Source: an uncultured Clostridia bacterium
GTDB taxonomy: Bacteria; Bacillota; Clostridia; Oscillospirales; CAG-272
Assembly (NCBI GenBank): GCA_945936265.1
Contig: CAMETB010000001.1
Coordinates: 1-33,335, forward strand
DNA: 33,335 bases
Reading direction: 5' to 3'
Part shown: piece by piece, positions 3,469-25,713 of the stretch
Layout: each line of letters opens with the position of its first letter
Position numbering within the stretch: position 1 is the first letter of the stretch
Program-made: the position numbers and the translations under genes
Notes under the pieces: generated by a model
Database searches by the model: none
What the model saw: only the letters and a program-made list of their open reading frames with translations
What the model was told of the DNA's origin: nothing

Positions 3469-3475
3469 AAAGGGA

Positions 3476-3501
3476 AACCGCCTGCTGAAAAGCAGACGGT
3501 T
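3476..3501 (-). terminator. Second hairpin downstream of the SDR gene
   Basis: AACCGCCTGCT-GAAA-AGCAGACGGTT forms an 11-bp stem with one mismatch. On the minus strand it is followed by TTTCCCTTTAAAATAAAAA. Confidence 0.5.
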
Positions 3502-3533
3502 TAAGGTTTCAAAGAATTAGAGTGCGCAGTAGG

Positions 3534-4334: not shown

Positions 4335-4375
4335 TTTGAAATCCTCCATATATTAAAATAAACCATCCAACGAAC

Positions 4376-4404
4376 ATAATAAACCTTTTCGGTTGATAAG
4401 TCAA
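4376..4404 (-). promoter_or_regulatory. Sigma-A-type promoter for the SDR gene
   Basis: The minus strand reads TTGACT - 17 nt - TATTAT. The spacer contains the small palindrome AACCGAAAAGGTT. Confidence 0.5.
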
Positions 4405-4440
4405 TAGTTTACAAGAGATTTTCACTTAATTTTCAAAAAA

Positions 4441-5604: not shown

Positions 5605-5612
5605 TTTGAGCC

Positions 5613-8190: not shown

Positions 8191-8202
8191 TTTTGCTCCT
8201 CC

Positions 8203-9231: not shown

Positions 9232-9248
9232 ATCTTATTACTCCTTTT

Positions 9249-10544
9249 TCAATTCTCATTTTTTCTAAGTCCGGAAAATATTTTACAAAATCTCAACGAG
9301 CGTTCCCTGTAGTTTTCAAACATATCAAAACTTGCGGAAGCGGGAGATAAAAGAACGCTGTCTCCGCATTTCGCTTTTGAAAACGCTTGTGTAACCGCCT
9401 CATCAAAGTTTTCAGTCACCGTTATATTGTCGCATACATCAAAAACGGATTCATATATTTTTTCTCTGTTCTCTCCGCAGATAACGATCGCTTTTATGCC
9501 GCATAGTGCCTTGCCGAGAATATCGTAGGTTAGATTTTTGTCGTATCCGCCCAGAATAATGACGGTTTTGGATTTGTCAAATGTACTTGCAGTAGCCGCC
9601 GTTCTTGACGGTGTAGAGTCTATCGAGGAATCAAAAAACGATACTCCACCGACTTTTCCCACAAATTGCATTCTTGATTTAACACCTTCAAAAGACGAGA
9701 GTACCTCCCGTATATCGTCTGTCGGCACATATTCAAAAGCCGCACCGACCGATGCCATTGCATTCATAAGATTAAACTTTCCGCGCAGCCTTATTTCGTC
9801 CGTTTTTATGATTTTTATGCCGTCGTAGCAAAGATAACCGCCCTCCACCGTGACAAAATGCGCACACTCCTCAGGCTTTTTTGTTTCTTTTAAGGAAAAA
9901 CAGGTTATATCCTCGGGTGGTTTGCAAGAGGCAAACTCCCGAACGGTAAAATCGTCGTAATTGAGAACCGCCCTTGACGAGATTAAGACTATATTTTTCT
10001 TTGCGTCAATGTATTCGCCCATCGAGGTGTGCCAATCAAGATGGTTTTCTGTAATATTGGTAACCACGCACGTATCGAGCGATGCGGTAAAATCCATAAG
10101 CTGAAAACTTGACAGCTCGGCAACTATAAAAGAATTTTCCTCGGCGCACGGTGCAAAATCAATAACAGGCTTGCCGATATTGCCGCAAAGATACGCTTTG
10201 CCGGTTTTTTCAAGCATCAAATATATGAGCGTTGATGTCGTACTCTTGCCGTCCGAGCCTGTCACTCCTATCTTTTTTGACTTTGTAAGTGACATGGCAA
10301 ATGACGCTTCCGTCGTTATATATCCTCTGCCCGATATTTTATCGGGACGCACGGAGGGGGAGCGAATAATAATGTCCTCGTTTGTCAAAAGATATCCGTC
10401 ACCGAAAATGCCCGAGGTGCCAAGCGGTAAATCGCACGGCTTTTCGCATCTGACGGTGGGGTGTATCCCGTTTTTTGTAAAATAGGAAAGCGCCGCCTTG
10501 TTTGATACTCCGTATCCTATAAGCGAAGCGGTATTAAAGTTCAT
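9249..10544 (-). CDS. murD: UDP-N-acetylmuramoyl-L-alanine--D-glutamate ligase
   Basis: It has the N-terminal Rossmann-like motif GYGVSNKA, the Mur ligase P-loop GVTGSDGKSTTSTL, and the C-terminal LLSPASASFDMFENYRERS typical of MurD. Length is 431 aa. Confidence 0.85.
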   Translation of the reverse strand: MNFNTASLIGYGVSNKAALSYFTKNGIHPTVRCEKPCDLPLGTSGIFGDGYLLTNEDIIIRSPSVRPDKISGRGYITTEASFAMSLTKSKKIGVTGSDGKSTTSTLIYLMLEKTGKAYLCGNIGKPVIDFAPCAEENSFIVAELSSFQLMDFTASLDTCVVTNITENHLDWHTSMGEYIDAKKNIVLISSRAVLNYDDFTVREFASCKPPEDITCFSLKETKKPEECAHFVTVEGGYLCYDGIKIIKTDEIRLRGKFNLMNAMASVGAAFEYVPTDDIREVLSSFEGVKSRMQFVGKVGGVSFFDSSIDSTPSRTAATASTFDKSKTVIILGGYDKNLTYDILGKALCGIKAIVICGENREKIYESVFDVCDNITVTENFDEAVTQAFSKAKCGDSVLLSPASASFDMFENYRERSLRFCKIFSGLRKNEN

Positions 10545-10617
10545 ATCCGTCCTCTTTCTATATTATAAATAAAAAAGCTCTCAAATTCAATACCTTTGAA
10601 AAATATTCCGCTTTATT

Positions 10618-11579
10618 TCACCACGTCATCATAATATGCGGGGTCGATCCGCCGTTTATTTCATTTGTTATCAGAGCATCAATAAGCAACGAAAAGGAGT
10701 ACCCGTCGTTTATAAAGAGTTTTGGGAACATACTTATGTCGGTAAAGCCGGGTATTGAATTTACCTCGTTAAACAACACTCCCCCGTCTTTTTTAACGAA
10801 AAAGTCCATACGGCAAAAGCCCTTGCATTCAAGTGAGTAAAACAGTTTCTGGCAGTAGTTTCTTATGGCGCGCTCGCTTTGCTTTTCTGTTTTTGCGGGG
10901 ATTATATAACTGACGGTTTTGTCCTTATACTTCGTGTCGTAATCGTAAAATTCACCAAAGTAGCCTATCTCGCCAAGGGTGCTTACTCTTATTCTGCCGC
11001 CGTCGCACATAACCGCCGCTTCCACCTCTTTACCGTCTACCGCTTCCTCGGCAATTACTCGGTCCGAGCAGTAAAAAGCTTTTTCAAGCGCGGTATCGAG
11101 TTCGCTTGCGTGGTTCACCTTTGAAATGCCCACCGATGAGCCTGAGCGGCATGGTTTTATAAACACGGGATAGCCGATTTTTGATATTTTTTCCCTCAAG
11201 GTCTCCCTGCTTGCAAGCTCTCCTTTATAAGCGACAACGCTTTTTGCACACGGGACACCGATATCTTCCGCCACGAGTTTGGTAAGATATTTGTCCATAC
11301 AGATAGCACTTGACAAATATCCGCAACCGACAAATTTTATGCCCGACATCTCAAGAGCGCCCTGTATTCTGCCGTCCTCCCCAAACGCGCCGTGTCGTTA
11401 AAAATCGCTCTTTCGTCACCGTCAAAAAGGTACCACTCGCCCTCTTTCGTTATGCCGAGCTTCAAAACCTCGTATTTCTCTTTGTCAATATGCGAAGCAA
11501 CCGCAAATGCGGAGTGCAGCGACACCTCGTATTCGTTCGATTTTCCGCCGAAAATCAGACACACCGTCGGCTTTTTCAA
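10618..11579 (-). pseudogene. ddl: D-alanine--D-alanine ligase, interrupted by a frameshift (true pseudogene or homopolymer sequencing error)
   Basis: The N-terminal piece (KKPTVCLIFGGKSNEYEVSLHSA...) runs to a stop at 11337. The C-terminal frame is open from 11397 and reads RHGAFGEDGRIQGALEMSGIKFVGCG...DKYLTK...FIKP..GSSVGISKV...EVNSIPGFT. The two frames meet next to the A5 run at 11400-11404. The probable start is TTG at 11579 (MKKPTV), preceded by GAGAGGTG. Confidence 0.85.
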
Positions 11580-11634
11580 AAGAAACACCTCTCAAAAACT
11601 GATTTTACCTTTTTTTAAAAGGTCTGACGATATA

Positions 11635-11663
11635 ATTATATGATACACCGCTCTTTTTGACAA
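11635..11663 (-). promoter_or_regulatory. Sigma-A-type promoter upstream of ddl-murD
   Basis: The minus strand reads TTGTCA - 17 nt - TATAAT. Confidence 0.5.
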
Positions 11664-11730
11664 AAATAAGGCCGCCACAAACCAAAATTTGCATCAGCCT
11701 TGATATTGTATAGAGTATTTTTTAATAATG

Positions 11731-12981
11731 TTATTTATCCTGCGCGACGGTGTTTTTCTTTTTCGGCTTCTCTATCTCTCCGGCAAGCTCGAAGCCTTTC
11801 TTTGCGGCAATTACCGCAATAATTTCGTTTATTACTGCCGCTGCCGCAACCGTGCCTTGCACTATGCCTGCAAGGTCTGAGCGTGTAGCCGAGAGCGTTG
11901 TACAGATAATTCCCGTAAAAACAAGGGAAACGCCCGAATGAGGCAAAAGGGTAAGCCCGAGATATTTCTGAACGGTGGGCGCCATATTTGTTGCCTTTGC
12001 GCCGAGCCTTGCGCCGAAGTATTTTCCGACGATACGTGCGGATATATAAACGAAGGTATAAATGCCTGCGCCGAGTATCAGGCGATAGTTAAGGGGTGCG
12101 CCGAGATCGACTATGGCGGCAAGCAACGAAATGCCAAGTATCGGAGAGAAATCAGCAGTGATTTCGGCAAGGCGCTCCTCGCTTACCATATTGCTGAAAA
12201 CCGCAGAGAATGAAACACCCATAAGCATATAATTGAGCGTTATTCCCGAGAGCAAAAACGTATTGAAAATCCAGCCGATAACCATTGTACAGGTAATTCC
12301 GAGAAGCAAGACGGCAAGCGTTTTTGCCTTGCCTTTTACACGTTTGAGCAAAAGCCCTACGGGCAAGCCGACAATAATTCCTATGGCAACGGGCAAAAGA
12401 ATCATAACTGGTATCATATAAAACGGCATGGAGCCGCCCGAAACCTCTCTTGCTATAAGAGAATTTACGGTAAAGAACACAATAATTCCGACTATATCGT
12501 CAAGTACCGCCATCGGCAAAAGAGTATCGGTAACGGGGCCCTTGGCGTGAAATTCATTGACTATTGATAAAGCGGGGGCGGGAGCTGTGGCAAGTGCAAT
12601 CCCTCCGAACGCAAAAGCAAGGTATATCGGTATATCGGAAAGTGAAAAGATTATTCCGAACACAAGGCTGACGACTGCAAAGGTGCCGAGCGACTGCGTC
12701 ATTGTTGTTATTACAAGCGCCTTGCCGTAGTTTTTAAGTTTTTTCCATACAAGTTCCGTGCCGAGCATCAAGCCGAAGGCACATTGCATCCACATTATAA
12801 TTACCTTGTACCAATCGGAGTCCATAAGTTCCGTCGGCATAAGTCCGACGGCGTGAGGACCGAATATCATGCCGACGATAAGCCAGCCGAGAATTGCGGG
12901 CATCCTGATTTTTGACATAAGTTTTCCCGCAATAAAGGCAATTATTAAAACCGCTATCCAGCGAAATAAATACAATACCAT
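11731..12981 (-). CDS. Cation:proton antiporter (Na+/H+ exchanger family) membrane protein
   Basis: This is a 416 aa, highly hydrophobic polytopic protein with about 11-12 predicted helices and a Gly/Ala/Ile/Leu-rich composition typical of CPA-type exchangers. Its ATG directly abuts the tetR stop, so the two are probably co-transcribed. Confidence 0.7.
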   Translation of the reverse strand: MVLYLFRWIAVLIIAFIAGKLMSKIRMPAILGWLIVGMIFGPHAVGLMPTELMDSDWYKVIIMWMQCAFGLMLGTELVWKKLKNYGKALVITTMTQSLGTFAVVSLVFGIIFSLSDIPIYLAFAFGGIALATAPAPALSIVNEFHAKGPVTDTLLPMAVLDDIVGIIVFFTVNSLIAREVSGGSMPFYMIPVMILLPVAIGIIVGLPVGLLLKRVKGKAKTLAVLLLGITCTMVIGWIFNTFLLSGITLNYMLMGVSFSAVFSNMVSEERLAEITADFSPILGISLLAAIVDLGAPLNYRLILGAGIYTFVYISARIVGKYFGARLGAKATNMAPTVQKYLGLTLLPHSGVSLVFTGIICTTLSATRSDLAGIVQGTVAAAAVINEIIAVIAAKKGFELAGEIEKPKKKNTVAQDK

Positions 12982-13587
12982 TTACTCTCTCTCCTCTGCG
13001 ATACCGTAGAGCATAAAGTCAAAAAGCTTCATCACGTTTTCCTCGTGTATCTTTACTCTTTTCCCAAGCTCGACACCCCTGTAAAGCGGGCTGCTGAAAT
13101 ATCCGTTAAACATAGTCTGCATAAGGCGGAAATACGAAAGGGCGTCGTCCTTCGTTATGCCTTTTCTTAAAACGAGCGTATCGACCGTCTTTTTATAAAT
13201 GCTTTCGTTGAGTTTGTTAAAACTATCGAGCGCTTCGCTTATTTCCTCTGACAGATGGCTTTGCGGCATAAGAAGCGCCTCAAAAAAGATATGCGCCTCG
13301 TTTGGAAACGCCTTAAAAAATTCCATACGGACGGACATATATTTTTCCAGGCTTTCCTCTCCGCCTCTTTTGCGGATATATTCCGTAAAAGTATCGCAAC
13401 TCTTTTTTAAGCAGAACAGGTAAAGACCGTCCTTGCCCGTAAAATTATGATAGATAAGTCCTTTGTTTATTCCCGACTTACATATATTATTTATCGTGCC
13501 GCCGATATAACCGTTTGTGCCGAACTCGTCCATTGCGACCCCGGTTATCTTTGAAACGGTGATTTTCGTTTTTTCGCTTTTCTTCAT
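12982..13587 (-). CDS. TetR/AcrR family transcriptional regulator
   Basis: The N-terminal HTH region reads ITGVAMDEFGTNGYIGGTINNICKSGINKGLIYHNFTGKDGLY. I prefer the start at MKKSEKTK (ATG 13587) because AAGGAG lies 7 nt upstream. The longer track ORF would run through the promoter. Confidence 0.8.
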   Translation of the reverse strand: MKKSEKTKITVSKITGVAMDEFGTNGYIGGTINNICKSGINKGLIYHNFTGKDGLYLFCLKKSCDTFTEYIRKRGGEESLEKYMSVRMEFFKAFPNEAHIFFEALLMPQSHLSEEISEALDSFNKLNESIYKKTVDTLVLRKGITKDDALSYFRLMQTMFNGYFSSPLYRGVELGKRVKIHEENVMKLFDFMLYGIAEERE

Positions 13588-13917: not shown

Positions 13918-15024
13918 TCAAACTTCCTGAGACCCTGTTTCTTCATCCCTGACAGCGTCTAATGCTGCCCGGATAACCTTGTCCATATCAAGATACTCAT
14001 ATCGTCCCAGACGTCCGCCGAAAATAACATCGGGATGTAAAGCCGAAAGTTCCCGATACTTTGAATACAGCGCCATATTTTTTTTATCATTGACAGGATA
14101 GTAAGGATCCATACCCTTATGCCATTCTGCCGGATATTCACGACTTATAACTGTTGTTTTCTGCGTCCCGTATTCGAAATGTTTGTGTTCTATTATACGT
14201 GTATACGGTATGTCTGATGATGTATAATTCACCACGGCGTTCCCTTGATAATTTTCACAACATAAAATCTCTTCTTCAAAACGAACGCAACGGTACTCCA
14301 GCTCGCCATAACAGTAATCAAAATATTCATCTATCGGTCCGCTGTAAACCGTTTTAAGTGCATCAACCGATTTTTCAATCTGCTTATAATCGGTGTTCAG
14401 CAATACCTCGATACCATCCAGCAATTTATCGAAAATCACTGAATAACCGCCTATCGGAACGCCCTGATATATATCGTTGAAATAATTATTGTCATAGGTA
14501 AATCTTATCGGAATTCTGTCAATTATGAAGGCAGGGAGATCTTTGCATTTTCTGCCCCATTGTTTTTCGGTATATCCCTTGATTAGTTTCTCATATATAT
14601 CAGTTCCAACCAAGGATATCGCTTTCTCTTCCAGATTGTTGGGTGATGAAATTCCGGAATGCAGAATTTGTTCCGATATTATCTTTTTTGCCTCGGAAGG
14701 CGTTTTTATGCCCCACATTTTGCTGAATGTGTTCATATTGAAGGGCAGGTTGTAAATCTGACCCTTATATACGGCGAGCGGTGAATTGATAAAGTTGTTG
14801 AATTCTGCATATTTGTTTACATAATTCCATATCTCACTATCCGAAGTATGAAATATATGCGCGCCGTATTTATGAACATTTATGCCTTCCGTTTGCTCGG
14901 TATAGCAATTTCCTCCGATATGCGGACGTTTATCGATAACCAGACATTTTTTTCCTCTGTCCGTCATCTCTCTTGCAAATACGGCGCCGAATAATCCCGC
15001 TCCTACAACAAGATAATCGTACAT
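13918..15024 (-). CDS. glf: UDP-galactopyranose mutase
   Basis: It has the FAD-binding start MYDYLVVGAGLFGAVFA. Family-typical stretches include HIGGNCYT, HKYGAHIFHT, IIEHKHF, YYPVN and GRLGRYEYLDMD. Length is 368 aa. Confidence 0.9.
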   Translation of the reverse strand: MYDYLVVGAGLFGAVFAREMTDRGKKCLVIDKRPHIGGNCYTEQTEGINVHKYGAHIFHTSDSEIWNYVNKYAEFNNFINSPLAVYKGQIYNLPFNMNTFSKMWGIKTPSEAKKIISEQILHSGISSPNNLEEKAISLVGTDIYEKLIKGYTEKQWGRKCKDLPAFIIDRIPIRFTYDNNYFNDIYQGVPIGGYSVIFDKLLDGIEVLLNTDYKQIEKSVDALKTVYSGPIDEYFDYCYGELEYRCVRFEEEILCCENYQGNAVVNYTSSDIPYTRIIEHKHFEYGTQKTTVISREYPAEWHKGMDPYYPVNDKKNMALYSKYRELSALHPDVIFGGRLGRYEYLDMDKVIRAALDAVRDEETGSQEV

Positions 15025-15855
15025 TTATTTTCTCCTTAAACCCTTGACAATCTTTTTAGCTAAAAATCTTCTCTTGCTCTCAGGTGGGAAAAGTGCATCT
15101 GAAATTCTTTTTTTAGCCGAGCAGCAGATATCAAGCCGGGGAAGTTCTTTTATCAGGACTTTATTTTCGTAACAGTATGATATATATATTCCGGTAAATA
15201 TCTCCCCTAAATATCCGTCCGCTCTGTCAGACTGAAAATCTCCATGGGGCTTTTTCAGCAAATCAAATTCGTTCAATGCATTGAAAAGTATATCACAGTA
15301 CTCGTAAAAGTGAGCCTTATCCATAATAAACATATTACAAAAATATTGCCTTTGCTGTGATAAATACTTTTCAACAGTTTCAGAAAGATGCGGAGATTGC
15401 TTTTTAAGTATTTTTATGAACAAATTCAAATCATCGGCGTAATGATACTGGGAGCCGCAATAGTGTTCGCGAACCGTCAGGCCCATATTTTCACTACGCG
15501 GAGCTATAATTTCGTATCCGGAAATAAGTTTTTCCCATTGTTCCCCGGTGCCGAGAAGTCTTTCATCGGTCAATTGTGAAAATACAAGATACGGGCGCTT
15601 TATGCTGTCATCAATGCAAAAAAGCCTTCGGTAATGACAAAAGCCGTAATAATCGGCAGAAATGTTTTTCCAGGCATAGTAATGAGCTGTAAGTTCGCAA
15701 TATTCACGATTTTTTATCGATATATTTTCGCCATCATTATCGTGAATTACGCCGGCAATACACGGGTTCAAAGCCGCCCCGCATTGTATTGGATTAAATA
15801 AAGGCGGAATTATGCTGTACGAATTATGGCAACATAAGAACAAAGCGTTTTTCAT
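15025..15855 (-). CDS. DUF4422-type glycosyltransferase (probable galactofuranosyltransferase)
   Basis: Motifs PIQCGAAL, DNDGENISIKNREYCELTAHYYAWKN and YYGFCHYRRLF match my recollection of the DUF4422 family. It lies directly adjacent to glf. The start is uncertain. I prefer ATG 15855 (MKNALFL) over the track's TTG at 15882. Confidence 0.7.
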   Translation of the reverse strand: MKNALFLCCHNSYSIIPPLFNPIQCGAALNPCIAGVIHDNDGENISIKNREYCELTAHYYAWKNISADYYGFCHYRRLFCIDDSIKRPYLVFSQLTDERLLGTGEQWEKLISGYEIIAPRSENMGLTVREHYCGSQYHYADDLNLFIKILKKQSPHLSETVEKYLSQQRQYFCNMFIMDKAHFYEYCDILFNALNEFDLLKKPHGDFQSDRADGYLGEIFTGIYISYCYENKVLIKELPRLDICCSAKKRISDALFPPESKRRFLAKKIVKGLRRK

Positions 15856-15976
15856 AAGCGAAAATTTCTCCGTACCGGACAATATGCTTAATAAGTTACA
15901 TACTGTATGGTTTAATTACACAAATCAGGACTCCGAACACAAAATCAACGGGTCAAAAAATATCATTTTAACTGTT

Positions 15977-17071
15977 TTATTGAACTTTAATCCAACTTAT
16001 AAGCTTTCTATATGCCTGTTCCAATCCTACTTGAGGCTTCCACCCGAGAGAACAAAGCTTGGTATTATCCAAAAACAGTTTTGTGTTCGGAGCGTATCCG
16101 TATTTCATTGAATCCGAAGGAATGTCAATAACAACTTTTATTTTATCCTCCGCAATATTATGAGCAACCATCCGAGCCATTTCTATTATAGTTGTATGGC
16201 TTGCCGGATTGCATATATTGTATGCTTCTTTGTACTTGCCTTTTTTCAACAATATAAGAATTGCTCTTATTGCATCAGATGTATATACATAGTTACCCTC
16301 TGACAATCCATTTGTGTGAAGGACTATATCGTTTCCGTCGATAACGCTCCTTGCGAATTGAGCAAACACCCTGTTTTCTGTCGGGAGAATCCCCGCACCG
16401 AAGGTCTGTGCAAGCCTTGCCGTTGTTACATTGACTCCGTATTGCGCCGAATAGGCGTTGCACAAGCACTCACATGCGCGCTTGCTTTCCGGATAACAAC
16501 TTCTGACGGAGGAAAGATCAATATAGCCAAGCGACTTTTCATCTGTCATCTCATTTTTTTCGATGTTTCCGTATACCTCCATCGAAGAAAGATATACCAT
16601 TGACGCGTTATTATCACGGGCAATTTTGAGCAATGAATCGGTACTGTTGAACGCCGAAACAAGAACAGATACCGGGAATGTTACCATTTCCTTTGAGTTT
16701 GTTATGGCTGCCGTATGGATTATAAAGTCGACTTTATCCGAAAATTCAAAATTTCCGCTCCCTAAATCTTCCGTTACCACAAAAGAAAGCGCCGTATTGT
16801 CTGATTCCTGTGAAAAAACAGACTTTGCTTTTTCTATATTTCTGACAACAGCATAAATCTTAATTTTCAGATCGTATTTTCTGTTGTAGTAAAGCAGCGT
16901 TTTGACCATGAGCGATCCTATAAGCCCTGTGCTACCCGTTATGAGAAACGAAGAACCGTAAAAATCTTTCAATCTCAATCCGTCAGATTCAACAGACTCA
17001 AAATCCTCTTCCAGAATTTTATCTTGCAAAGACAAATCAATAGCCATTGATTTGAGAATCCTCCCTTGCAT
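15977..17071 (-). CDS. Extended SDR (NAD-dependent epimerase/dehydratase/reductase family)
   Basis: It has ITGSTGLIGS (GxxGxxG), SSMEVYG and YPESKRACE (YxxxK). The start is ambiguous (TTG 17074, ATG 17071 or ATG 17047). Every option overlaps the stop of the upstream cytidylyltransferase gene. Confidence 0.75.
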   Translation of the reverse strand: MQGRILKSMAIDLSLQDKILEEDFESVESDGLRLKDFYGSSFLITGSTGLIGSLMVKTLLYYNRKYDLKIKIYAVVRNIEKAKSVFSQESDNTALSFVVTEDLGSGNFEFSDKVDFIIHTAAITNSKEMVTFPVSVLVSAFNSTDSLLKIARDNNASMVYLSSMEVYGNIEKNEMTDEKSLGYIDLSSVRSCYPESKRACECLCNAYSAQYGVNVTTARLAQTFGAGILPTENRVFAQFARSVIDGNDIVLHTNGLSEGNYVYTSDAIRAILILLKKGKYKEAYNICNPASHTTIIEMARMVAHNIAEDKIKVVIDIPSDSMKYGYAPNTKLFLDNTKLCSLGWKPQVGLEQAYRKLISWIKVQ

Positions 17072-17765
17072 CAAGAATCGCTCTCATAATATAAAAATCT
17101 TCCGGCGTGGTTATTTTAATGTTATCCTTCGGGCCTTCCGTCAGGTGAAGTTCTTTGCCGTAAAATTTCATCATTGAACAGGAATCGATAAAATCGTTCA
17201 ACCCGGATTTCAAAGACTGACGATGCGCTTCAAGAATATCTTTAAGCCAGAAACTCTGCGGGGCGCGTGCGAGTTTACAATCTTTGCGTGGAGGCACTGA
17301 TAATATTCTGCCGTCTTCGTCTGCCATCAGAACCGTTTCCTGTGCCTTAACACAAGTGATGCAACTCCCGTATTTAAGCACACAATCAATGTTGTCATCA
17401 ATAGTCTGAGAGGTAATGAGAGGTCTTACTCCATCATGGATAAGAACGATGCATTTATCTTTGTCCTCCCCTGCAATCTCCTCCGCCGCACATAAGCCGA
17501 AGTAGATCGACTGCTGACCGGAAGTGCCGCCCTTCTTTATCATCTTAACTTTCCTTATGTTGTACTTGTCAAGCAACATGTTCAGATGATCAATCCATCC
17601 GTCAACGCATACTACAACTATTGCATCTATGCGTGGGTTGTTCTCAAACACTTTCAATGTGTGGATTATTATCGGTTCTCCGTGTACTTCCAAAAACTGT
17701 TTAGGTCTTTCCTTGCTGTTCATTCTGGCACCTACACCGCCTGCAAATATAACCGCTATATTCAT
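17037..17765 (-). CDS. IspD/TarI-family cytidylyltransferase (CDP-alditol or related CDP-activated donor synthesis)
   Basis: The N-terminus MNIAVIFAGGVGARMNSKERPKQFLEVHGEPII is the AGGxGxRM...KQF signature of IspD/TarI enzymes. Length is 242 aa. Confidence 0.8.
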   Translation of the reverse strand: MNIAVIFAGGVGARMNSKERPKQFLEVHGEPIIIHTLKVFENNPRIDAIVVVCVDGWIDHLNMLLDKYNIRKVKMIKKGGTSGQQSIYFGLCAAEEIAGEDKDKCIVLIHDGVRPLITSQTIDDNIDCVLKYGSCITCVKAQETVLMADEDGRILSVPPRKDCKLARAPQSFWLKDILEAHRQSLKSGLNDFIDSCSMMKFYGKELHLTEGPKDNIKITTPEDFYIMRAILDAREDSQINGY

Positions 17766-17775
17766 CTTTTTCTCC

Positions 17776-20247
17776 CTATTTCTTCATCTTCAAACGACGT
17801 TTGATTTCCTGTGTTATTCTCTCTGAATTATCCGGTCCGTTGGCTGTCTCATCAAAGAAATACTTCAATACTTCTTTTCGCCACCCGGCGTCCTTCTGAG
17901 GATCTTCAAGATATTTTCCCACTTCTTCCATTGTTTCTTCCCAGGTGTAAGTTTTAGGACCGGGAGTTGCTTCCATATAATCGAGATTCATATCGGTATC
18001 ATTTTTACAAAATGTTTCATAGTCATAGCAAAAGAACACTGCTGCTTTGTCAAATAATAAGAAATCGTATGCTATGGAAGAGTAATCGGAAATTATTACT
18101 GCGTAATCGTTTATTCTCGGATAAATATCCTTTTCATCATCAAATTTTATTCTGTCATATTTTTTTATAACCGGTTTGATTAATTTCGAATAATTGCGCC
18201 ATGTGTTCGGATGAAGACGAAGGACAAATACCGAATCGTATTTTTCCATGGTTTCCTGAATCATACTGACACTGTCAAGAAAATTTTTAACAAGCGACTT
18301 CTCGTCTTCCTCTTTCATACGATAAGTCGGCGCATATATCACATAATTTTTTGAAGGTGAACTCAATGAATTATATACAGGCAAATTTCTCGGATGACCT
18401 GCCATGAAATAACTTGACTCCGGTATGTTCCATCTCTTTCCGAACATATCTATCCGTTCCTGACCGGGACAAACAAACAGAAAATATTTCTCGAACAATT
18501 CTCTGAAATAAGCATGCCTGAAATACTTGATTTTCTTTATAAATCTCGTGCCTGCGGAATCTCCCGGCTGTGCAATTATGTCGGTGCTGTACATTACCCC
18601 GGCAACATCGGTATTTTTAACTTCCTTGCCATTGCCCATAGATTTAAGACCGACGCCATGCCAGAGTTGGACTATCTTCGTTCTGTCACTTAATCCGTGC
18701 AGCGGATTATAATCCGTCATTTTGAAATGGTCGGTAACAGCCACAGAACAACGAGCCATCCTCCATGCCCCCGCAATCGTATTGTTCATAGAGACAGGGT
18801 AACCGTTTGCCTTCAGTTTCTTATAGAGTTCTTTGCTTTTTGTAAACCAAATGGCCTTTATTTCCGGGTGGTTTTTCACTACATATTCATAGTAATACTT
18901 TGCATTGTCGAAAAATTTGTTTCCTGCGTAAAACGAAGTAAATGCCCATCTCTTTTTGCTCTTCGGTATGAGACAATTCAGCCAGTATGCAATGAATTTG
19001 GAAAAATTATAAACTTTCCTTGAAAACTTGCACTTTTTCAGTCTGGAAATAAATTTCTTTATTTTCGCTTTTGTCAATGACAATCTGGTATATAACTTTA
19101 CTATAGGCTTGAAAAGATGCATAAATTTCGAGTTTCTTGCGACAATTTTATTACCTTCCCAGCCATAAATTCTTGTCATCCTTCTGCTGTCGTTATAAAA
19201 TGACAAATATGCGTTTAAGGAAATTACGCCGGCATCCGGGAAAGTTATGAAAAAATCCGCAATTTCTTTTTTCATATTGTTCTTGACCAGCACCTGCAGA
19301 TACAAACTTGCCTCGTATTTAATGCGATTCTCTATCTGAACAACGCCGTATCCGCCATACCATCTGATGAAAAACTGTCGTAATCCCGTCAACATTATCA
19401 GATACTGCGGTCTCGTATACAAAAAGTTCTCGTCCATGCTCTTGTATGTTGTAAGAGAGTTGTCGTTTTTTCTGTATACAGCCATTACTTTGTCTTCCAG
19501 GTACACCATGCCCCGACGTCCCATATGCAAAAGGAACATCGGCAAATCGCCTATATACTTGTTTCTGTAAAACCAATCGGGAAGAGGGTTAAGATCTTGA
19601 TTTACACGCAGCATTACAGCGAGTGGCGTAGGATTTCCCCCACACTCCATAAATGTCTTTACATCATAATAATTGTTTTTTGATTTTTTAAATTCCGGAA
19701 TACACTCCGGCATATAAATGTTTCCATCTTTTGCTCTCTTATAATACGTTTCAAGAAAATGATTTTTCGGCAGCGTCATCAGAACATTGCAGAAACATCC
19801 CCCTAAATCGGGATGCGCAGCCAAGTAATCATATTGATATTGGAGTTTGTTTTCGTCGGTCCAGTAATCATCCCCGTCACAAAATGCGACAAAAGGTGAC
19901 GCAGCAACTGCCCTCTCGCAAAGGTCTCCGAAATTTCTCATACTTCCTACATTTTTACGTCTTAAAACAGGTACTATCAACCCCGGATATCTTTTTGCAT
20001 ATTGTCTTACAATATCTGTCGTTCCGTCAGTACTGCAGTCGTCACCGACAAGTATCTGAAACCTGAAATTAGTCTTCTGGCATACAAGGCTGTCAAGGCA
20101 CTCTTTTATATATTCCTTCTGATTATAAGTAACGGTTACAATTGAAACCATTATCGGATTGACTTTTTTACGAACCGTTGTCTTTTTTTTCTTTGTTAAT
20201 TTCTTTTTGTTGCTTTTCTTATTTGTTTTTGACATATCCAATACCAA
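17776..20247 (-). CDS. Bifunctional GT2 glycosyltransferase / TagF-like CDP-alditol phosphotransferase
   Basis: The N-terminal GT2 domain reads VSIVTVTYNQKEYIKECLDSL...LVGDDCSTDGTTDI...CDGDDYW. The C-terminal Glyphos_transf-type motifs are IVQLWHGVGLK, VIYAPTYR, VLRLHPN and ISDYSSIAYDFLLFDKAAVFFCYDYE. The start is uncertain (TTG 20247, ATG 20235 or ATG 20151). Confidence 0.8.
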   Translation of the reverse strand: MVLDMSKTNKKSNKKKLTKKKKTTVRKKVNPIMVSIVTVTYNQKEYIKECLDSLVCQKTNFRFQILVGDDCSTDGTTDIVRQYAKRYPGLIVPVLRRKNVGSMRNFGDLCERAVAASPFVAFCDGDDYWTDENKLQYQYDYLAAHPDLGGCFCNVLMTLPKNHFLETYYKRAKDGNIYMPECIPEFKKSKNNYYDVKTFMECGGNPTPLAVMLRVNQDLNPLPDWFYRNKYIGDLPMFLLHMGRRGMVYLEDKVMAVYRKNDNSLTTYKSMDENFLYTRPQYLIMLTGLRQFFIRWYGGYGVVQIENRIKYEASLYLQVLVKNNMKKEIADFFITFPDAGVISLNAYLSFYNDSRRMTRIYGWEGNKIVARNSKFMHLFKPIVKLYTRLSLTKAKIKKFISRLKKCKFSRKVYNFSKFIAYWLNCLIPKSKKRWAFTSFYAGNKFFDNAKYYYEYVVKNHPEIKAIWFTKSKELYKKLKANGYPVSMNNTIAGAWRMARCSVAVTDHFKMTDYNPLHGLSDRTKIVQLWHGVGLKSMGNGKEVKNTDVAGVMYSTDIIAQPGDSAGTRFIKKIKYFRHAYFRELFEKYFLFVCPGQERIDMFGKRWNIPESSYFMAGHPRNLPVYNSLSSPSKNYVIYAPTYRMKEEDEKSLVKNFLDSVSMIQETMEKYDSVFVLRLHPNTWRNYSKLIKPVIKKYDRIKFDDEKDIYPRINDYAVIISDYSSIAYDFLLFDKAAVFFCYDYETFCKNDTDMNLDYMEATPGPKTYTWEETMEEVGKYLEDPQKDAGWRKEVLKYFFDETANGPDNSERITQEIKRRLKMKK

Positions 20248-20264: not shown

Positions 20265-21542
20265 TTAAACTCTCCAGTCCAAAAGCGCTTCCACTTCGCT
20301 GCAATCAAAAACAGGAATGCCGCAGACACGGCTCACATCATAACGCTCGCTGAAAGCGTCATCGATAAATATTGCAGACTTTTGTACTATATATGATGAC
20401 TTAGGTTTATCGTTGTCAATAACGATAATATCACTGAAAAGTTCCTCGCTGATATGAAAATCCTTAAGGCTCGAATGGATATCTTTACTGTGCCGGCTTA
20501 AAAGCACGATGTTCTTACCCTGATTTTTCGCCTGATAAAGAAACATCATAAGAATTGTATTTACTTTATCTCCCAGATGAACCGTGTCATCAAAATCCAC
20601 ATAGACCCAGGAATATTCGATATCTGTTTTATAACGGCTTATAAATGCACGGTCGACCGTTATACTGTACTTATTGTCAATAACCGTTACGGGAACGCCT
20701 TCAAAACAAAATAAAGTCATCATCGGATAGTTAAGCCCGAGATTTCGGGTTATTCCCATTGTCCCCGCAATTCTGGGGGCAACCTCCATCAACCGATATT
20801 CTCCGGAATCATTTCTTTTCAGCTGGAAAAACCATGCACCTTTGAAATGAAGACGACTGTTGATAATTTTTGCAATTTGCTTTACCTTTTCATCTTCGGG
20901 CAAAATCTCGCTGCTTACGCTTATACCTGTCCTTATCCGTTTTCTGTTTCGCATTTTAAAGCACAATAAATTTCCGTCATTGTCTGTGAAACAGTCAACA
21001 GTATATTCTTCACCGCTGAGATACTCACATATTATTCTCCCGGGGTTTTCATTCAATGCATATTTAAGTTCCGCCGCGTCGTTCACTTTCAGAGCGCCCT
21101 GCGCACCTTGTCCGACATCCGGCTTTACAAACACGGGAAATTTCTTAACCTCACTCTCAGAGTATGTATCCGGCACAAAATCCTCGTCTTTGAAAAGCCT
21201 GTATGTTTTTGATTTTGAACGGCAGATCTCCGTTGTGTAAAGATCAGCGGAAACAATCACAGCGTTTATTTTATCTGCATTTTGCACAAGAAACAGTTGA
21301 ATATCATCGTACGCCGGATATATGTAATCTATTTCATACTCCTTAATCACTTCATTGAGTTTTTCAATAAAATCCGGAGAATCAAAATACGGCACCCCGG
21401 TAATGCAATTTGAAAAAACATATTCGCTGTGATTAGGCGTACTGGTCAACCCGTATACTTTGAAATGCTTGGAATATTTCAGTGCGTTATTTATTTCAAG
21501 TCCTATTTCGGAACCTGCGGGAAAAACAAGTACGTTTTTCAT
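20265..21542 (-). CDS. ATP-grasp ligase fused to a small HAD-like phosphatase domain
   Basis: Residues 1 to about 300 form the ATP-grasp domain (FPVFVKPDVGQGAQGALKV, ICEYLSGEEYTVDCF, LMEVAPRIAGTMG). The C-terminal ~110 aa carry HAD motifs: I VDFDDTV (DxDxT), II VLLSR, III DKPKS, IV FIDDAFSE. Confidence 0.7.
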   Translation of the reverse strand: MKNVLVFPAGSEIGLEINNALKYSKHFKVYGLTSTPNHSEYVFSNCITGVPYFDSPDFIEKLNEVIKEYEIDYIYPAYDDIQLFLVQNADKINAVIVSADLYTTEICRSKSKTYRLFKDEDFVPDTYSESEVKKFPVFVKPDVGQGAQGALKVNDAAELKYALNENPGRIICEYLSGEEYTVDCFTDNDGNLLCFKMRNRKRIRTGISVSSEILPEDEKVKQIAKIINSRLHFKGAWFFQLKRNDSGEYRLMEVAPRIAGTMGITRNLGLNYPMMTLFCFEGVPVTVIDNKYSITVDRAFISRYKTDIEYSWVYVDFDDTVHLGDKVNTILMMFLYQAKNQGKNIVLLSRHSKDIHSSLKDFHISEELFSDIIVIDNDKPKSSYIVQKSAIFIDDAFSERYDVSRVCGIPVFDCSEVEALLDWRV

Positions 21543-22513
21543 CGGTTTTTGCTCCTAATTTCAAATTTTATCTTTCTTATTTTCTCCGAAAGTTTTGTCA
21601 TAATCGCGACAAATACCGCAATCGGTGATATGGCAATGAATTTAATTTTTCCTACGCGGGATATTACTTGCTTTAAGCATTCTGAATTTGCAGGGCTCTT
21701 GCGGATAAGTGATTTTATCAATGCACTGCCGCATATTTTCAGTTTTCTTGTCCTGAAACAAATTTTTTTATTTTCAATATCCGACGCTAATTGTGATAAT
21801 TTTTCATTTATGTCGTAATCAACAACGGAATTTTCATTTTTATAAATTTTGTCTGTAACGCTCCCGTCGGAAAATTTACGATAGCAACCGAGTATTCTGC
21901 TCAATCGATAAAAATTTCCCTTCATCGAATACAACATTACAATGGTTCTGTCTGAAATCTGGGGATGTACCTCGTACATATTTCTAAGTTCCGGATACTC
22001 GCTGAAAATATTACGGTACATCATCGTACTTGTCTGACCCGGTAAAAATATCCCCTTAAAACTCTTGAATGTAAATTTCCGGTTATAAGATATCCACGGC
22101 AAAAAGCCATCACCCGAGAGCCTTCCGTCCTCTCCGATCAAAGTACAATCCCCGCAGCAGCCTATAAATCGAGGATGCGTTTCCATAAACTCAACCTGTG
22201 AGATAAGTTTATATTTATCACACCAATAATCGTCGCCTTCCAACGTTGCCACATACTTTCCGGAAGCTGCCGCAAGCAACAGATATAAATTTTTCGATGC
22301 ACCTATGTTCTTTTCCCTGACAAACAATTTTATTTTGTCGGGAAACCGCGACCTGAACTCTTCAAGTATGTCGGTTGTACCGTCGGTCGAGCAATCGTCG
22401 CCTATCAATATTTCATAATCAACATCACCCTGCTGAGACAGCACGCTGTTAACCGCTTCGGAAATATATTTTCGTTGGTTATGCGCGATAATCAATACAG
22501 ATACCAAACTCAT
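21539..22513 (-). CDS. GT2 family glycosyltransferase with a C-terminal hydrophobic segment
   Basis: Motifs are VSVLIIAHNQRKYISEAVNSVLSQ, LIGDDCSTDGTTDI and LEGDDYW. The C-terminus contains FIAISPIAVFVAIM. It is paralogous to the GT2 half of the 823 aa protein. Confidence 0.8.
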   Translation of the reverse strand: MSLVSVLIIAHNQRKYISEAVNSVLSQQGDVDYEILIGDDCSTDGTTDILEEFRSRFPDKIKLFVREKNIGASKNLYLLLAAASGKYVATLEGDDYWCDKYKLISQVEFMETHPRFIGCCGDCTLIGEDGRLSGDGFLPWISYNRKFTFKSFKGIFLPGQTSTMMYRNIFSEYPELRNMYEVHPQISDRTIVMLYSMKGNFYRLSRILGCYRKFSDGSVTDKIYKNENSVVDYDINEKLSQLASDIENKKICFRTRKLKICGSALIKSLIRKSPANSECLKQVISRVGKIKFIAISPIAVFVAIMTKLSEKIRKIKFEIRSKNR

Positions 22514-22514
22514 G

Positions 22515-23630
22515 TCAAGCCTTACAACACCGTAGAATCGTATCGCATATCCTGTCTATATCTTCGAAAGAAAGTTCGGCATAGAGCGGAAGCGTGAGAA
22601 CGTTCTCCGAGATTCTTTTTGCTACAGGTGTATCCGCCGGACTGCATTTTTCCCGAATCGCCGTAAAATCAGATGTTATGGGATAGAAATATTTCCTTGC
22701 AAAAATATTTTCGCTCTCGAGAGCCTTTGCTATATCGTCGCGGTTTTTCCCCAATATCTTTTCATCGAAAACAACAGGAAAATAAGAATAGTTGTAAACC
22801 GTGTTTTCTTTTTCTTTACAGAGAGTTATTCCGTCTATTCCGTCGAGGCGTTCGCGATATCTGCCGACGCATGCCTTCCTCTTATCGATGTATTCGTTTA
22901 TATGGCGCATATTACAAATTCCCATCGCGGCCTGAAATTCGTTCATTTTTGAGTTTGTACCAAGAACGCTTACATCATCCTCTCCGGAAAATCCGAACTG
23001 GCACAGAGCGTGAATCCTATCCTTGAGATTGCTGTCTTTAAACGCAAGGCAACCTCCCTCAATCGAATTGAACACTTTTGTAGCATGAAAACTGAACATT
23101 GTAATGTCTCCGAGAGAGGCTACACTTCTTCCGTCGACTTTTTCTCCGAACGCATGTGCACCGTCATATATCACTTTTAAATTATACTTGGATGCCAGCT
23201 GCTCTATCTTTTTATAATTGCAAATATTGCCGTAAACATGTACCGGCATAATGGCGCTAGTTTTTTCCGTAATAAGTGATTCGATTTTATCTGCGTCAAT
23301 GGTATAATCGTTCTCATCGATATCGCAAAATACAGGCGTAAGCCCTTTTCTCATAATCGCCAAAGTCGTGGACGCAAAGGTAAAAGGGGTCGTAATTACC
23401 TCTCCCGTAAGTTCAAGAGCATCAATTGCTATCTCAAGCGCCTGATGCCCGTTTGAAAACAAATGTATATTTGGTATATCCAGATATTTAACGAGTTGCC
23501 TTTCCAATTCCTGATGCTTCTCTCCGAAGTTGGTCAGCCAATGGCTGTCCCAGATTGATCGGATTTCCTTACAATATTCGTCAAAAGGAGGCATTGAAGA
23601 CATTGTAACCCGAATGACATCTTTACTCAT
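22515..23630 (-). CDS. DegT/DnrJ/EryC1/StrS family PLP-dependent sugar aminotransferase
   Basis: The PLP lysine motif is FSFHATKVFNSIEGG. Length is 371 aa. It lies directly downstream of rfbA-rfbB. An AAGGAAAG ribosome-binding site precedes ATG 23630. Confidence 0.85.
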   Translation of the reverse strand: MSKDVIRVTMSSMPPFDEYCKEIRSIWDSHWLTNFGEKHQELERQLVKYLDIPNIHLFSNGHQALEIAIDALELTGEVITTPFTFASTTLAIMRKGLTPVFCDIDENDYTIDADKIESLITEKTSAIMPVHVYGNICNYKKIEQLASKYNLKVIYDGAHAFGEKVDGRSVASLGDITMFSFHATKVFNSIEGGCLAFKDSNLKDRIHALCQFGFSGEDDVSVLGTNSKMNEFQAAMGICNMRHINEYIDKRKACVGRYRERLDGIDGITLCKEKENTVYNYSYFPVVFDEKILGKNRDDIAKALESENIFARKYFYPITSDFTAIREKCSPADTPVAKRISENVLTLPLYAELSFEDIDRICDTILRCCKA

Positions 23631-23659: not shown

Positions 23660-24679
23660 TTATCTGTTCCCGTACATTTTTGCGTAATAGTCCTTATATT
23701 CGCCGTTGATGATATGTTCCCACCACTCACGGTTTTCAAGATACCACTGAATAGTCTTCTGAATCCCGTCTGCAAATTTTGTTTCCGGGAGCCATCCAAG
23801 CTCGTTGTGTATCTTTGTCGGGTCAATTGCGTATCGTCTGTCGTGTCCTTTGCGATCAGTTACATGTGTTATAAGGCTCTCGGGTTTATCAAGTGCCTTA
23901 CATATTATCCTGACGATATCGATGTTTCTCATCTCATTGTGCCCGCCGATATTATACACTTCTCCGACACGACCTTTATGAATTATCATATCAATCGCTC
24001 GACAGTGATCTTCGACATACAGCCAGTCCCGCACATTCAGTCCCTCTCCGTAAACCGGTAAAGGCTTATCATGCAACGCATTGGCTATCATTAACGGAAT
24101 GAGTTTTTCCGGAAACTGATACGGCCCGTAGTTATTTGAACAGCGAGAGATTGTTATCGGTAAACCGTACGTCCTGTAATATGCCTGCACAAGTAAATCA
24201 GCGCTTGCTTTGGATGCGGAATACGGTGAACTTGTGTGTAACGGAGTGGACTCAGTAAACAGCATATCCGGTCTGTCAAGGGGCAAATCCCCATACACTT
24301 CGTCCGTTGATACCTGATGAAAACGCTCTATGCCGTATTTCCGGCAGGCATCCATCATAACGGAAGTTCCCACTATATTGGTATTCAAAAATACGCCCGG
24401 ATTTTCAATTGAACGGTCAACATGACTTTCCGCGGCAAAGTTTATGACAACATCAGGATGCTCGTTTTCGAAAACGTTGAAAACAGCATCGCGATCGGTT
24501 ATATCAACTTTGTAAAACTTAAAATTCGGGTTGCGTGTCAGGGGTGCAATGGTTTCAAAATTCCCTGCATAAGTGAGACAATCAACACAGATTATCTTAT
24601 AATCCGGATGATTTTTCGCCATATAATGAACAAAATTTCCTCCGATAAATCCGGCTCCACCGGTCACTATGATCTTCAT
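23660..24679 (-). CDS. rfbB: dTDP-glucose 4,6-dehydratase
   Basis: Motifs are [23 protein letters not shown] and YSASKASAD, with a C-terminal WW...EY-rich tail typical of RmlB. Length is 339 aa. Confidence 0.9.
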
Positions 24680-25554
24680 TGACTATCCTCCGCCAACTTC
24701 ATAATATACTGTCCGTACTCGGTCATTTTCATCTCTTCTCCGAGTTTTTTCAACTGTTCCGTCGTTATAAATCCACGTCTCCATGCAATCTCCTCGATGC
24801 ATGAAATATAAAAGCCCTGCATATCCTGAACGCTCTGTACAAACTCAGCGGCTTTCAGCATTCTTTTCGGTGAGCCTGTATCAAGCCATGCCATTCCGCG
24901 CCCCATGAGAATTACATTAAGTTTTCCTTCCGACAAATACCGGTTGTTTATCGATGTTATTTCAATCTCACCGCGAGCAGAAGGCTCCACTTTTTTTGCC
25001 ATATCAACAACTTTGTTATCATAAAAATACAACCCCAGAACCGCATAATTCGATTTTGGTTCCGCAGGCTTTTCCTGTATGGAAATAACTTTGTTGTTCT
25101 TATCAAACTCTACAACGCCGAATTCACGCGGATTTGCAACCGGGTAACCGAAAACGGTTGCCCCTCCGTTTTCAACCTGTGCCATCGCAGTTCTCAGATA
25201 TGTACTGAGTCCTTGTCCGTAAAATACATTGTCTCCGAGAACAAGGCACACGCTGTCGTTCCCGATGAAATCTTCACCGAGAATAAATGCATCTGCAAGT
25301 CCGCGGGGCTTGTCCTGAACTTTATATTCGATATGTATTCCTATACGACTCCCGTCTCCCAACAGTTTTCTGTAATTCGGAGTATCGTCGGGAGTGGATA
25401 TTACGAGAATATCTTTTATTCCGGCAAGCAGCAGCACAGACAACGGATAATATATAAGCGGCTTATCATATATTGTCAATAACTGTTTTGAGACCGAAAT
25501 TGTGCTTGGATAAAGGCGGGTCCCTTTGCCCCCGGCAAGAATTATACCTTTCAC
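24676..25554 (-). CDS. rfbA: Glucose-1-phosphate thymidylyltransferase
   Basis: Motifs are [31 protein letters not shown] and [11 protein letters not shown] prefer the GTG start at 25554 (MKGIILAGG) with GAGAGG upstream over the track's GTG at 25572. Confidence 0.9.
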
Positions 25555-25684
25555 AGCAGTTAAACCTCTCACATCTTTTTTATCAGCATAATATACAATA
25601 GCTTCCGGAGTCAGATTATTGCATATTTCTGCAATTTTCAGAAATATTCAACCTGTTTTCAGTGGCTGATATTCCTAAGTTATA

Positions 25685-25713
25685 ATTATAACTTATTTAT
25701 TTCTTTATGTCAA
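25685..25713 (-). promoter_or_regulatory. Consensus sigma-A promoter of the glycopolymer operon
   Basis: The minus strand reads TTGACA - 17 nt - TATAAT, a perfect match to both hexamers. This gives a leader of about 120 nt before rfbA. Confidence 0.65.

Follow-up and report, generated by a model that had tools for sequence, protein, structure and literature searches.

An ATP-grasp–HAD fusion family and its DesI-like aminotransferase partner: a candidate amide ligase-phosphatase for amino sugars of surface glycans

The fusion gene, its operon and its two domains

Immune and phage recognition of gut and rumen anaerobes is shaped by their surface glycans; the enzymes that make most of the unusual substituents on these glycans have yet to be assigned. 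In a 33,335-nucleotide stretch of an uncultured Clostridia bacterium (contig CAMETB010000001.1 of assembly GCA_945936265.1, positions 1 to 33,335; hereafter “the window”), we have identified an open reading frame (ORF) encoding an ATP-grasp domain fused to a HAD-like phosphatase domain. The gene is the fifth of ten tightly packed operon genes on the minus strand, in the order RmlA, RmlB, DegT aminotransferase, GT2 glycosyltransferase, the fusion, a GT2 + TagF-like protein, an IspD/TarI-like cytidylyltransferase, a short-chain dehydrogenase/reductase (SDR), DUF4422 and UDP-galactopyranose mutase (Table 1). It shares 4 nt at its start with the stop of the GT2 gene upstream, an overlap suggestive of translational coupling, and RmlA, RmlB and DegT are contiguous. 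Judging by its sequence, the sigma-70 consensus site upstream of rmlA is likely the operon promoter. Pfam scans detected no acetyltransferase among the ten genes; neither RmlC nor RmlD was found in these scans or among the recurrent neighbour families described below. The fusion protein is 100% identical to P0001, and full-length homologues share 51–83% identity with it.

Residues 107–292 matched the Pfam models ATPgrasp_Ter (2e-18), ATP-grasp_3 and ATP-grasp_4, which pass their cut-offs; together with CPSase_L_D2 these were the sole families returned for the fusion protein, and the TupA-like model (ATPgrasp_TupA) gave no match in the same scan. In NCBIfam, PylC and the PRK12767 “carbamoyl-phosphate-synthase-like” group gave the top models, none of which came near its cut-off; for the PRK12767 equivalogs (NF009402–NF009406) the best score was 118 bits versus a cut-off of 390. 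The full-length AlphaFold2 (AF2) model, built with 36 homologues, reached a mean predicted local distance difference test (pLDDT) of 92 and a predicted template modelling score (pTM) of 0.89, a value that suggests a fixed arrangement with both domains packed as one rigid unit. Foldseek matched the model to 2pn1, PylC (4ffl), the L-amino-acid ligase 3vot and biotin carboxylases (E ~1e-17, 306–345 columns, probability 1.0). At the level of the model, residues 1–300 are confirmed as a three-subdomain ATP-grasp fold of the PylC / L-amino-acid-ligase / PRK12767 type. Invariant among the 36 homologues are the ATP-binding Lys K140, the hinge Glu E173, E179, the arginines R198/R200/R202, Q240, E253 and the catalytic Arg R257. 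The canonical triad of Mg2+ ligands (Asp/Glu, Glu, Asn) aligns to Q240, E253 and A255 (window 20772–20825) in a HMMER alignment to 2pn1, and position 255 is Ala or Ser in the 36-sequence alignment. With Q240 and A255 at Mg2+-ligand positions, canonical ligase chemistry is not guaranteed.

In the C-terminal part, the four motif strings of HAD enzymes lie at residues 316–320 (DFDDT), 347–351 (LLSRH), 378–382 (DKPKS) and 392–397 (FIDDAF). Segment 303–425 of the window protein had no HAD match in Pfam, which gave only noise, and no match at all in NCBIfam (E up to 10); a hidden Markov model profile of the domain from 25 homologues found no match among PDB sequences, and hhalign of that profile versus mouse MDP-1 (a sequence identical to 1u7o) produced no meaningful alignment. 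Among the 25 homologues, weak NCBIfam HAD matches were obtained for HAD-IIB (Cof-type) in 9 and HAD-IIIC in 7, with a best E of 1.8e-4. Since no sequence model recognises the domain, we assign it to the HAD superfamily by its fold and motifs. The AF2 model of residues 303–425 alone (pLDDT 93) comprises four parallel-strand/helix units with a short hairpin after motif I. Its top Foldseek matches were all capless HAD phosphatases, MDP-1 (1u7p; E 9e-5, TMq 0.71) being the best, followed by KDN-9-P phosphatase (4hgo), the domain of BF1531 that its depositors named a phosphatase (3slr) and KdsC. The modelled motif residues occupy the sites expected for HAD enzymes: D316 after strand 1, S349 after strand 2, K381 at a helix start and D394/D395 after strand 4.

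Conservation was followed in 150 representatives, each of a different cluster at 50% identity. D316 and D318 are each kept in 148/149 of these representatives, S/T349, K381 and D/N395 in 150/150, D394 in 149/150 and H351 in 132/149; the complete motif set (DxDxT with Asp at Asp+2, S/T, K and DD) is preserved, each motif in at least 146/150. The C-terminal domain is confirmed by modelling as a capless HAD fold with an intact phosphatase catalytic set, and the near-invariance of the motifs over 150 clusters argues for a predicted working phosphatase.

It could be supposed that the C-terminal domain catalyses nothing and has only a structural or regulatory role, or that the ATP-grasp domain is a kinase or carboxylase forming no amide. 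We regard this as very improbable: the four HAD motifs are near-invariant over ~150 divergent clusters, the ATP-binding Lys and Glu and the catalytic Arg are invariant, and the constant aminotransferase pairing described below fits an amine-acylating ligase. The failure of all sequence profiles to recognise the C-terminal domain and the non-canonical residues at two Mg2+-ligand positions are the points in favour of such a view. As for a non-catalytic HAD domain in particular, its residue conservation makes it unlikely.

The ORF, a complete ATP-grasp fold over its first ~300 residues and four HAD motifs behind it had been reported in a preliminary description made from the sequence alone, which did not state the strand (minus). 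Pfam, AF2 and Foldseek agree on the fold, the motifs recur across the 150 representatives, and the structural check of each half that it had proposed returned an ATP-grasp N-terminal half and a capless HAD C-terminal half with D316 as nucleophile. Its reading of a sugar-nucleotide operon with a DegT neighbour and no acetyltransferase likewise agrees with our Pfam results.

Table 1. Coordinates of the fusion gene, its predicted domains and motifs, and its operon (positions in the window)
Feature	Position	Strand	Remarks and basis
ATP-grasp–HAD fusion ORF	20265..21542	-	425 aa, ATG start, stop codon 20265-20267
ATP-grasp domain, residues 1-300	20643..21542	-	Pfam, NCBIfam below cut-off, Foldseek
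Predicted capless (C0) HAD-like phosphatase domain, residues 303-425	20268..20636	-	AF2, Foldseek
HAD motif I, D316-F-D318-D-T320 (nucleophile Asp, Asp+2 general acid/base)	20583..20597	-	Translation
HAD motif II, L-L-S349-R-H351	20490..20504	-	Translation
HAD motif III, Lys K381	20400..20402	-	Translation
HAD motif IV, D394-D395 (Mg2+ ligands), then invariant E399-R400	20358..20363	-	Translation
Candidate operon promoter, TTGACA-17-TATAAT upstream of rmlA	25685..25713	-	12/12 sigma-70 consensus match
RmlA, glucose-1-phosphate thymidylyltransferase, first operon gene	24676..25572	-	Pfam NTP_transferase 3e-73
RmlB, dTDP-glucose 4,6-dehydratase	23660..24679	-	Pfam GDP_Man_Dehyd, Epimerase
DesI-like DegT aminotransferase, conserved partner	22515..23630	-	Pfam DegT 4e-94; NCBIfam PLP_DesI
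GT2 glycosyltransferase between DegT and fusion gene	21539..22513	-	Pfam Glycos_transf_2
GT2 + CDP-glycerol-type glycerophosphotransferase (TagF-like) fusion, directly downstream	17776..20247	-	Pfam Glyphos_transf, Glycos_transf_2
IspD/TarI-like cytidylyltransferase, SDR, DUF4422, UDP-galactopyranose mutase	13918..17765	-	Pfam, NCBIfam

Family spread and gene neighbourhood

A word-index search with the fusion protein returned more than 5,600 matches, of which the top 120 were all ~425–450 aa long and covered 95–100% of the query; their names were at best “ATP-grasp domain-containing protein” or generic carbamoyl-phosphate-synthase-type labels. The profile of the HAD domain alone, run versus 1.84 billion cluster representatives (50% identity), retrieved 937 proteins at E up to 0.001. 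An ATP-grasp sequence precedes the HAD domain in 120 of the 150 best profile matches; many of the remaining 30 are short fragments, several of which still start with the inter-domain linker. On these sequences, the HAD domain is a private, diverged clade tied to the ATP-grasp domain of the fusion family. Two relatives carry a third domain, either a second PylC-like ATP-grasp or a GNAT domain of Acetyltransf_6 type. The distribution survey that the preliminary description had called for shows that the fusion is not rare. The same description knew of no characterised enzyme with this architecture, and in the literature we searched nothing relevant was found on an ATP-grasp–HAD fusion or on an ATP-grasp enzyme acting on viosamine or other amino-sugar nucleotides, and the literature on PF15632 concerned the Ter stress operon only.

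Scanning one genome per species yielded 318 confirmed stretches, of which 80 loci were kept. These span Clostridia (Lachnospiraceae, Oscillospiraceae, Clostridium tertium, C. sartagoforme), Bacilli (Gracilibacillus), Erysipelotrichales, Bacteroides and Methanobrevibacter. Neighbouring ORFs were called and clustered for the 67 loci with an intact target ORF, to which all counts below refer.

A DegT orthologue is present, no more than a few genes away, in 52/67 loci, immediately downstream of the fusion gene in 25 and immediately upstream in 10, on the same strand. These orthologues share 46–61% identity (median 56%) with the DegT protein of the window, apart from one 28% outlier, and are conserved like the fusion protein itself; the loci lacking DegT are mostly short contigs. 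DegT also lies directly upstream in both divergent three-domain relatives. The fusion gene is co-inherited with a DesI-like aminotransferase, and the aminotransferase link, first drawn from the window alone, is strengthened by this survey. DesI is a dTDP-4-keto-6-deoxyglucose 4-aminotransferase. The best PDB match of the window DegT is DesI (2po3, 1e-63, the next match being at 2.5e-46), and PLP_DesI is its top NCBIfam model by ~80 bits, although it stays under the TIGR04427 DesI equivalog cut-off (290 bits vs 650).

Other recurrent neighbours are GT2 (48 loci), a Wzx-type flippase (33), LicD (26), RmlB (16) and RmlA (11); the fusion gene is directly followed by a polysaccharide pyruvyl transferase in 7–8 loci, a 2-aminoethylphosphonate (AEP) cassette is present in ~10 and hexapeptide acetyltransferases adjoin the fusion gene in a few. 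RmlB copies with 70–80% identity adjoin the module in other loci. In several genomes, GT2, Wzx, fusion and DegT genes form a compact cassette within unrelated flanks, its genes overlapping or nearly abutting. As AEP cassette, LicD and pyruvyl transferase each occur in a minority of loci, they were rejected as obligatory partners.

The alditol-phosphate genes of the window have a narrow distribution. The TagF-like fusion stands at the same position in five loci (L001, L002, L004, L083, L084), among which Clostridium sp. AF18-27 (L083) has an operon almost the same as that of the window. A functional link of the fusion protein to ribitol/alditol-phosphate genes was considered and rejected, the TarI-like, SDR and TagF-like genes recurring in only ~5/67 loci. 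At 15977–17765 of the window (minus strand), the IspD/TarI-like cytidylyltransferase gene overlaps by 38 nt that of the Epimerase-family SDR, which stands in the place of a TarJ-type dehydrogenase; Clostridium sp. AF18-27 has two copies of this pair. The pair recalls CDP-ketose reduction routes to CDP-alditols.

Several loci deserve mention in their own right. Full-length members with 47–52% identity occur in Methanobrevibacter metagenome-assembled genomes (MAGs; L059, L076, L080) and in Bacteroides/Bacteroidaceae (L031, L069), with a DegT neighbour in four of these five loci, the exception being the short contig L069. Provided that MAG binning is correct, the archaeal and Bacteroidota members imply that the module has passed from one domain of life to another within the gut and rumen community. 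The AEP cassette, composed of a helix-turn-helix-nucleotidyltransferase, a class-V aminotransferase, a cytidylyltransferase-phosphoenolpyruvate mutase fusion and a thiamine diphosphate-dependent decarboxylase (which we take to be a phosphonopyruvate decarboxylase), lies directly upstream of GT2-Wzx-fusion-DegT-(RmlA/B)-LicD in L010, L016, L018, L025, L027, L030, L038, L053 and L062, and L031 has the same cassette genes in a different order. Such loci probably direct the synthesis of a phosphonate-decorated glycan. In C. tertium (L007, ~1100–13500), fusion gene, pyruvyl transferase and DegT lie between two genes read as flagellin from a representative sequence, a position which suggests that the glycan modified by the module in this species belongs to flagellin and not to a wall polymer; a published study of Clostridium flagellar glycosylation is silent on C. 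tertium, C. sartagoforme, ATP-grasp, pyruvyl, DegT and carbamoyl. In two further loci (L012, L046), a ~250-aa protein (family f68) encoded at most two genes from the fusion gene looks WbqC-like to us by eye. WbqC comes from the E. coli O121 cluster, and the O121 O-antigen carries N-acyl Qui4N.

Elsewhere in the window, a D-Ala-D-Ala-ligase-like gene at 10618–11588 (minus strand) is seemingly split into an 83-aa ORF (11337–11588) for the N-terminal part and a 243-aa ORF (10618–11349) for the C-terminal part, in different frames with a 13-nt overlap, which could reflect a frameshift, a pseudogene or a sequencing error. A 1104-aa ORF at 89–3403 (plus strand), with internal leucine-rich-repeat-like repeats followed by a (Thr-Asp)n run, a Gly/Ser-rich stretch and a C-terminal hydrophobic segment, probably encodes a cell-surface protein. 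Three consecutive paralogous-looking ORFs of 326–350 aa at 6161–9231 (minus strand) share the motif AH(M/T/F)D(E/S)(V/I)G.

A proposed reaction and its alternatives

The fusion enzyme probably attaches an unusual acyl group to an amino sugar. As to the reaction, we tentatively put forward, as the most plausible account, a bifunctional enzyme whose ATP-grasp domain N-acylates dTDP-4-amino-4,6-dideoxyhexose with a phosphorylated acid and whose HAD domain then removes the phosphate. RmlA and RmlB would supply dTDP-4-keto-6-deoxyglucose, from which DegT would form dTDP-4-amino-4,6-dideoxyhexose. The ATP-grasp domain would turn the carboxylate of a common phosphorylated acid, most simply 3-phosphoglycerate or O-phosphoserine, into an acyl phosphate, and the acyl group would be joined as an amide to the 4-amino group of the sugar. 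The HAD domain would next cleave the phosphate ester on the attached acyl group, giving an N-(hydroxyacyl or hydroxy-aminoacyl) sugar nucleotide, and the neighbouring GT2 would place the modified sugar in an alditol-phosphate/galactofuranose glycopolymer.

Family knowledge and synteny point to dTDP-4-amino-4,6-dideoxyhexose as the amine of the module, because a DesI-like DegT stands beside RmlA and RmlB and these are not accompanied by RmlC or RmlD. N-acylation of this amino sugar is the most economical reaction, since the closest ATP-grasp relatives join a small carboxylate to an amine by way of an acyl phosphate, the operon has no N-acetyltransferase and the compact cassettes encode no source of a glycan carboxylate. 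In fact, such cassettes make sense if their product is one modified amino sugar. The fusion of an invariant phosphatase to a ligase implies that one of the substrates carries a phosphate ester that is taken off. Since large or tethered molecules are the usual substrates of capless HADs, the capless architecture favours action of the HAD domain on the bulky ligated product. We take BF1531 to be FkbH-like, and both MDP-1 and BF1531 to belong to HAD-IIIC. The FkbH members of HAD-IIIC dephosphorylate an enzyme-bound phosphoglyceryl group. The structural kinship to MDP-1 and BF1531 makes a phospho-hydroxy-acid such as 3-phosphoglycerate attractive, O-phosphoserine being equally possible. The extra ATP-grasp or GNAT domains of the three-domain relatives and the adjacent hexapeptide acetyltransferases would agree with an amino-acid side chain being modified further.

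In a second possibility, the final product is the same, but the HAD domain works ahead of the ligation step or apart from it. The domain could free an acid from a phospho-metabolite (for example 3-phosphoglycerate to glycerate, or phosphoserine to serine) and pass it to the ATP-grasp domain, or it could dephosphorylate another intermediate such as a sugar phosphate. The catalytic set is intact, as this would require, and the two-domain model is compatible with the ATP-grasp domain serving as a surrogate cap that could admit small substrates. Moreover, NtdA is among the PDB matches of the window DegT, and kanosamine synthesis employs the DegT-family NtdA followed by the HAD phosphatase NtdB. 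Nevertheless, we consider this order of events unlikely, given that capless HADs usually take large substrates, that supplying a free acid such as serine does not call for a phosphatase of its own, and that no dehydrogenase making a keto-sugar-phosphate is conserved in the module.

A third possibility reverses the polarity of the amide. In the HS:2 capsule of Campylobacter jejuni, Cj1437 forms serinol phosphate from dihydroxyacetone phosphate, the TupA-like ATP-grasp enzyme Cj1438C amidates glucuronic acid (GlcA) with a phospho-amine, and the HAD enzyme Cj1435 removes the phosphate. By analogy, DegT would make a phospho-amine such as serinol phosphate from dihydroxyacetone phosphate, the ATP-grasp domain would amidate a carboxylate on a glycan or sugar, provided by a uronic acid, a pyruvate ketal or a nonulosonic acid, and the HAD domain would take off the phosphate. 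What speaks against this is the DegT protein, for which a nucleotide-sugar 4-aminotransferase is the best match by a wide margin; RmlA/RmlB without RmlC/RmlD, whose product needs a consumer, adjoin DegT in the window and in 11–16 other loci; no carboxylate-forming enzyme is encoded in the window operon or in the compact four-gene cassettes; and the ATP-grasp domain falls outside the TupA-like clade of Cj1438C. We therefore judge this polarity to be quite improbable, even though it has a direct experimental precedent for all three activities together (Cj1437/Cj1436, Cj1438C, Cj1435) and explains the phosphatase without inventing a phosphorylated acid. Certain loci would also fit it: those with a pyruvyl transferase directly behind the fusion gene, the Butyrivibrio loci in which genes for a CMP-nonulosonate synthetase-like protein and NeuB follow it, and three loci with a probable UDP-glucose dehydrogenase, which we presume from reading the sequence by eye.

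These loci also count against acylation of the amino sugar by a phosphorylated acid, all of these neighbours being possible carboxylate sources, and several other points weigh in the same direction. The acyl donor is a guess. RmlA/RmlB adjoin the fusion gene in only 11–16/67 loci, so that a dTDP sugar is assumed elsewhere, and neither the order of the steps nor the direction of the amide is fixed by the present results. Two of the three Mg2+-ligand positions are non-canonical in the HMMER alignment (Q240 and A255), no significant sequence profile ties the C-terminal domain of the window protein to any HAD family, and no characterised member or curated family was found.

Perhaps the fusion family provides a hitherto unrecognised, carrier-protein-independent route to N-glyceroyl or N-seryl 4-amino-6-deoxyhexoses, via the acyl phosphate of a glycolytic phospho-acid and subsequent HAD-IIIC-like dephosphorylation; in this specific form the proposal is speculative and doubtful. 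3-Phosphoglycerate would be converted on the enzyme to 1,3-bisphosphoglycerate, from which the acyl group would pass to the dTDP-amino sugar. 1,3-Bisphosphoglycerate is the species used by FkbH enzymes. The private, highly diverged HAD-IIIC-like domain would strip the phosphate and expose a hydroxyl, which the often-adjacent LicD-type transferases might load with phosphocholine, aminoethylphosphonate or glycerol phosphate. If this is true, the family would be a determinant of surface charge with a wide distribution among gut Firmicutes, Bacteroides and methanogens.

In hundreds of species, the fusion protein signals a conserved module of two genes, the second encoding a DesI-like aminotransferase. 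Establishing the reaction of the fusion protein would give a function to ~940 clusters now known only by the label “ATP-grasp domain-containing protein”, delimit a new HAD clade, one missed by Pfam, and make a specific N-acyl amino-sugar epitope predictable from genome sequence. The logic of an amide ligase combined with a phosphatase is already known in glycan loci; the family is a large conserved one awaiting a function rather than a conceptual surprise.

Comparison with known systems

The closest structures or models to residues 1–300 are PylC, L-amino-acid ligases (BL00235, 3vot) and the PRK12767 protein 2pn1, with which the ATP-grasp half shares the three-subdomain fold and the conserved ATP-binding residues. 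Those among them that are characterised ligate an amino-acid carboxylate to an amine. However, identity to PylC, 3vot and 2pn1 is 16–21%, none of them has a HAD domain or a sugar-nucleotide substrate, and by the HMMER alignment to 2pn1 the fusion protein has Gln240 and Ala255 in place of the canonical Asp/Glu and Asn Mg2+ ligands.

The HAD half has the same Rossmannoid fold as the capless HADs MDP-1, the BF1531 N-domain, KdsC and KDN-9-P phosphatase (TMq 0.58–0.71) and resembles them in the shapes of its motifs (DxDxT, S-R, K, F-x-D-D). The domain is smaller, its motifs I and II being separated by 32 residues versus 58 in MDP-1, and it is almost only found behind the ATP-grasp domain of the fusion family.

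In the ArnB/ArnA/ArnC pathway, an NDP-4-amino sugar is transiently N-acylated before its transfer to lipid. Both systems combine a DegT aminotransferase with an N-acylating enzyme and a GT2, and the compact cassettes are similar in layout, a likeness that we take as a lead only. ArnA uses formyl-tetrahydrofolate and no ATP, and the Arn pathway has no phosphatase; on the other side, the genes seen bordering the compact GT2-Wzx-fusion-DegT cassettes included neither a deacylase nor a GT-C transferase.

The HS:2 module of C. jejuni had been named in the preliminary description as the nearest logic. That precedent was described correctly, although the ATP-grasp half of the fusion protein belongs with the PylC / PRK12767 group and had no TupA-like match. 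The two systems are alike in encoding a pyridoxal 5'-phosphate (PLP) enzyme, an ATP-grasp amide ligase and a HAD phosphatase in one surface-glycan locus; the C. jejuni PLP enzymes Cj1437 and Cj1436 presumably belong to the DegT family as well. In the HS:2 module, the phosphate is carried through ligation and removed afterwards. Ligase and phosphatase are separate proteins in C. jejuni, whereas here they are fused, and the ATP-grasp enzyme is TupA-like there and of ATPgrasp_Ter / PylC / PRK12767 type here. Moreover, the amine in C. jejuni is a small phospho-amine and the carboxylate is the GlcA of the polymer, whereas here the DesI-like DegT together with RmlA/RmlB points to the sugar as the amine. 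The fusion family departs from the C. jejuni logic in its fused architecture, its ATP-grasp clade, its private HAD clade and, probably, a polarity in which the amino sugar is the nucleophile.

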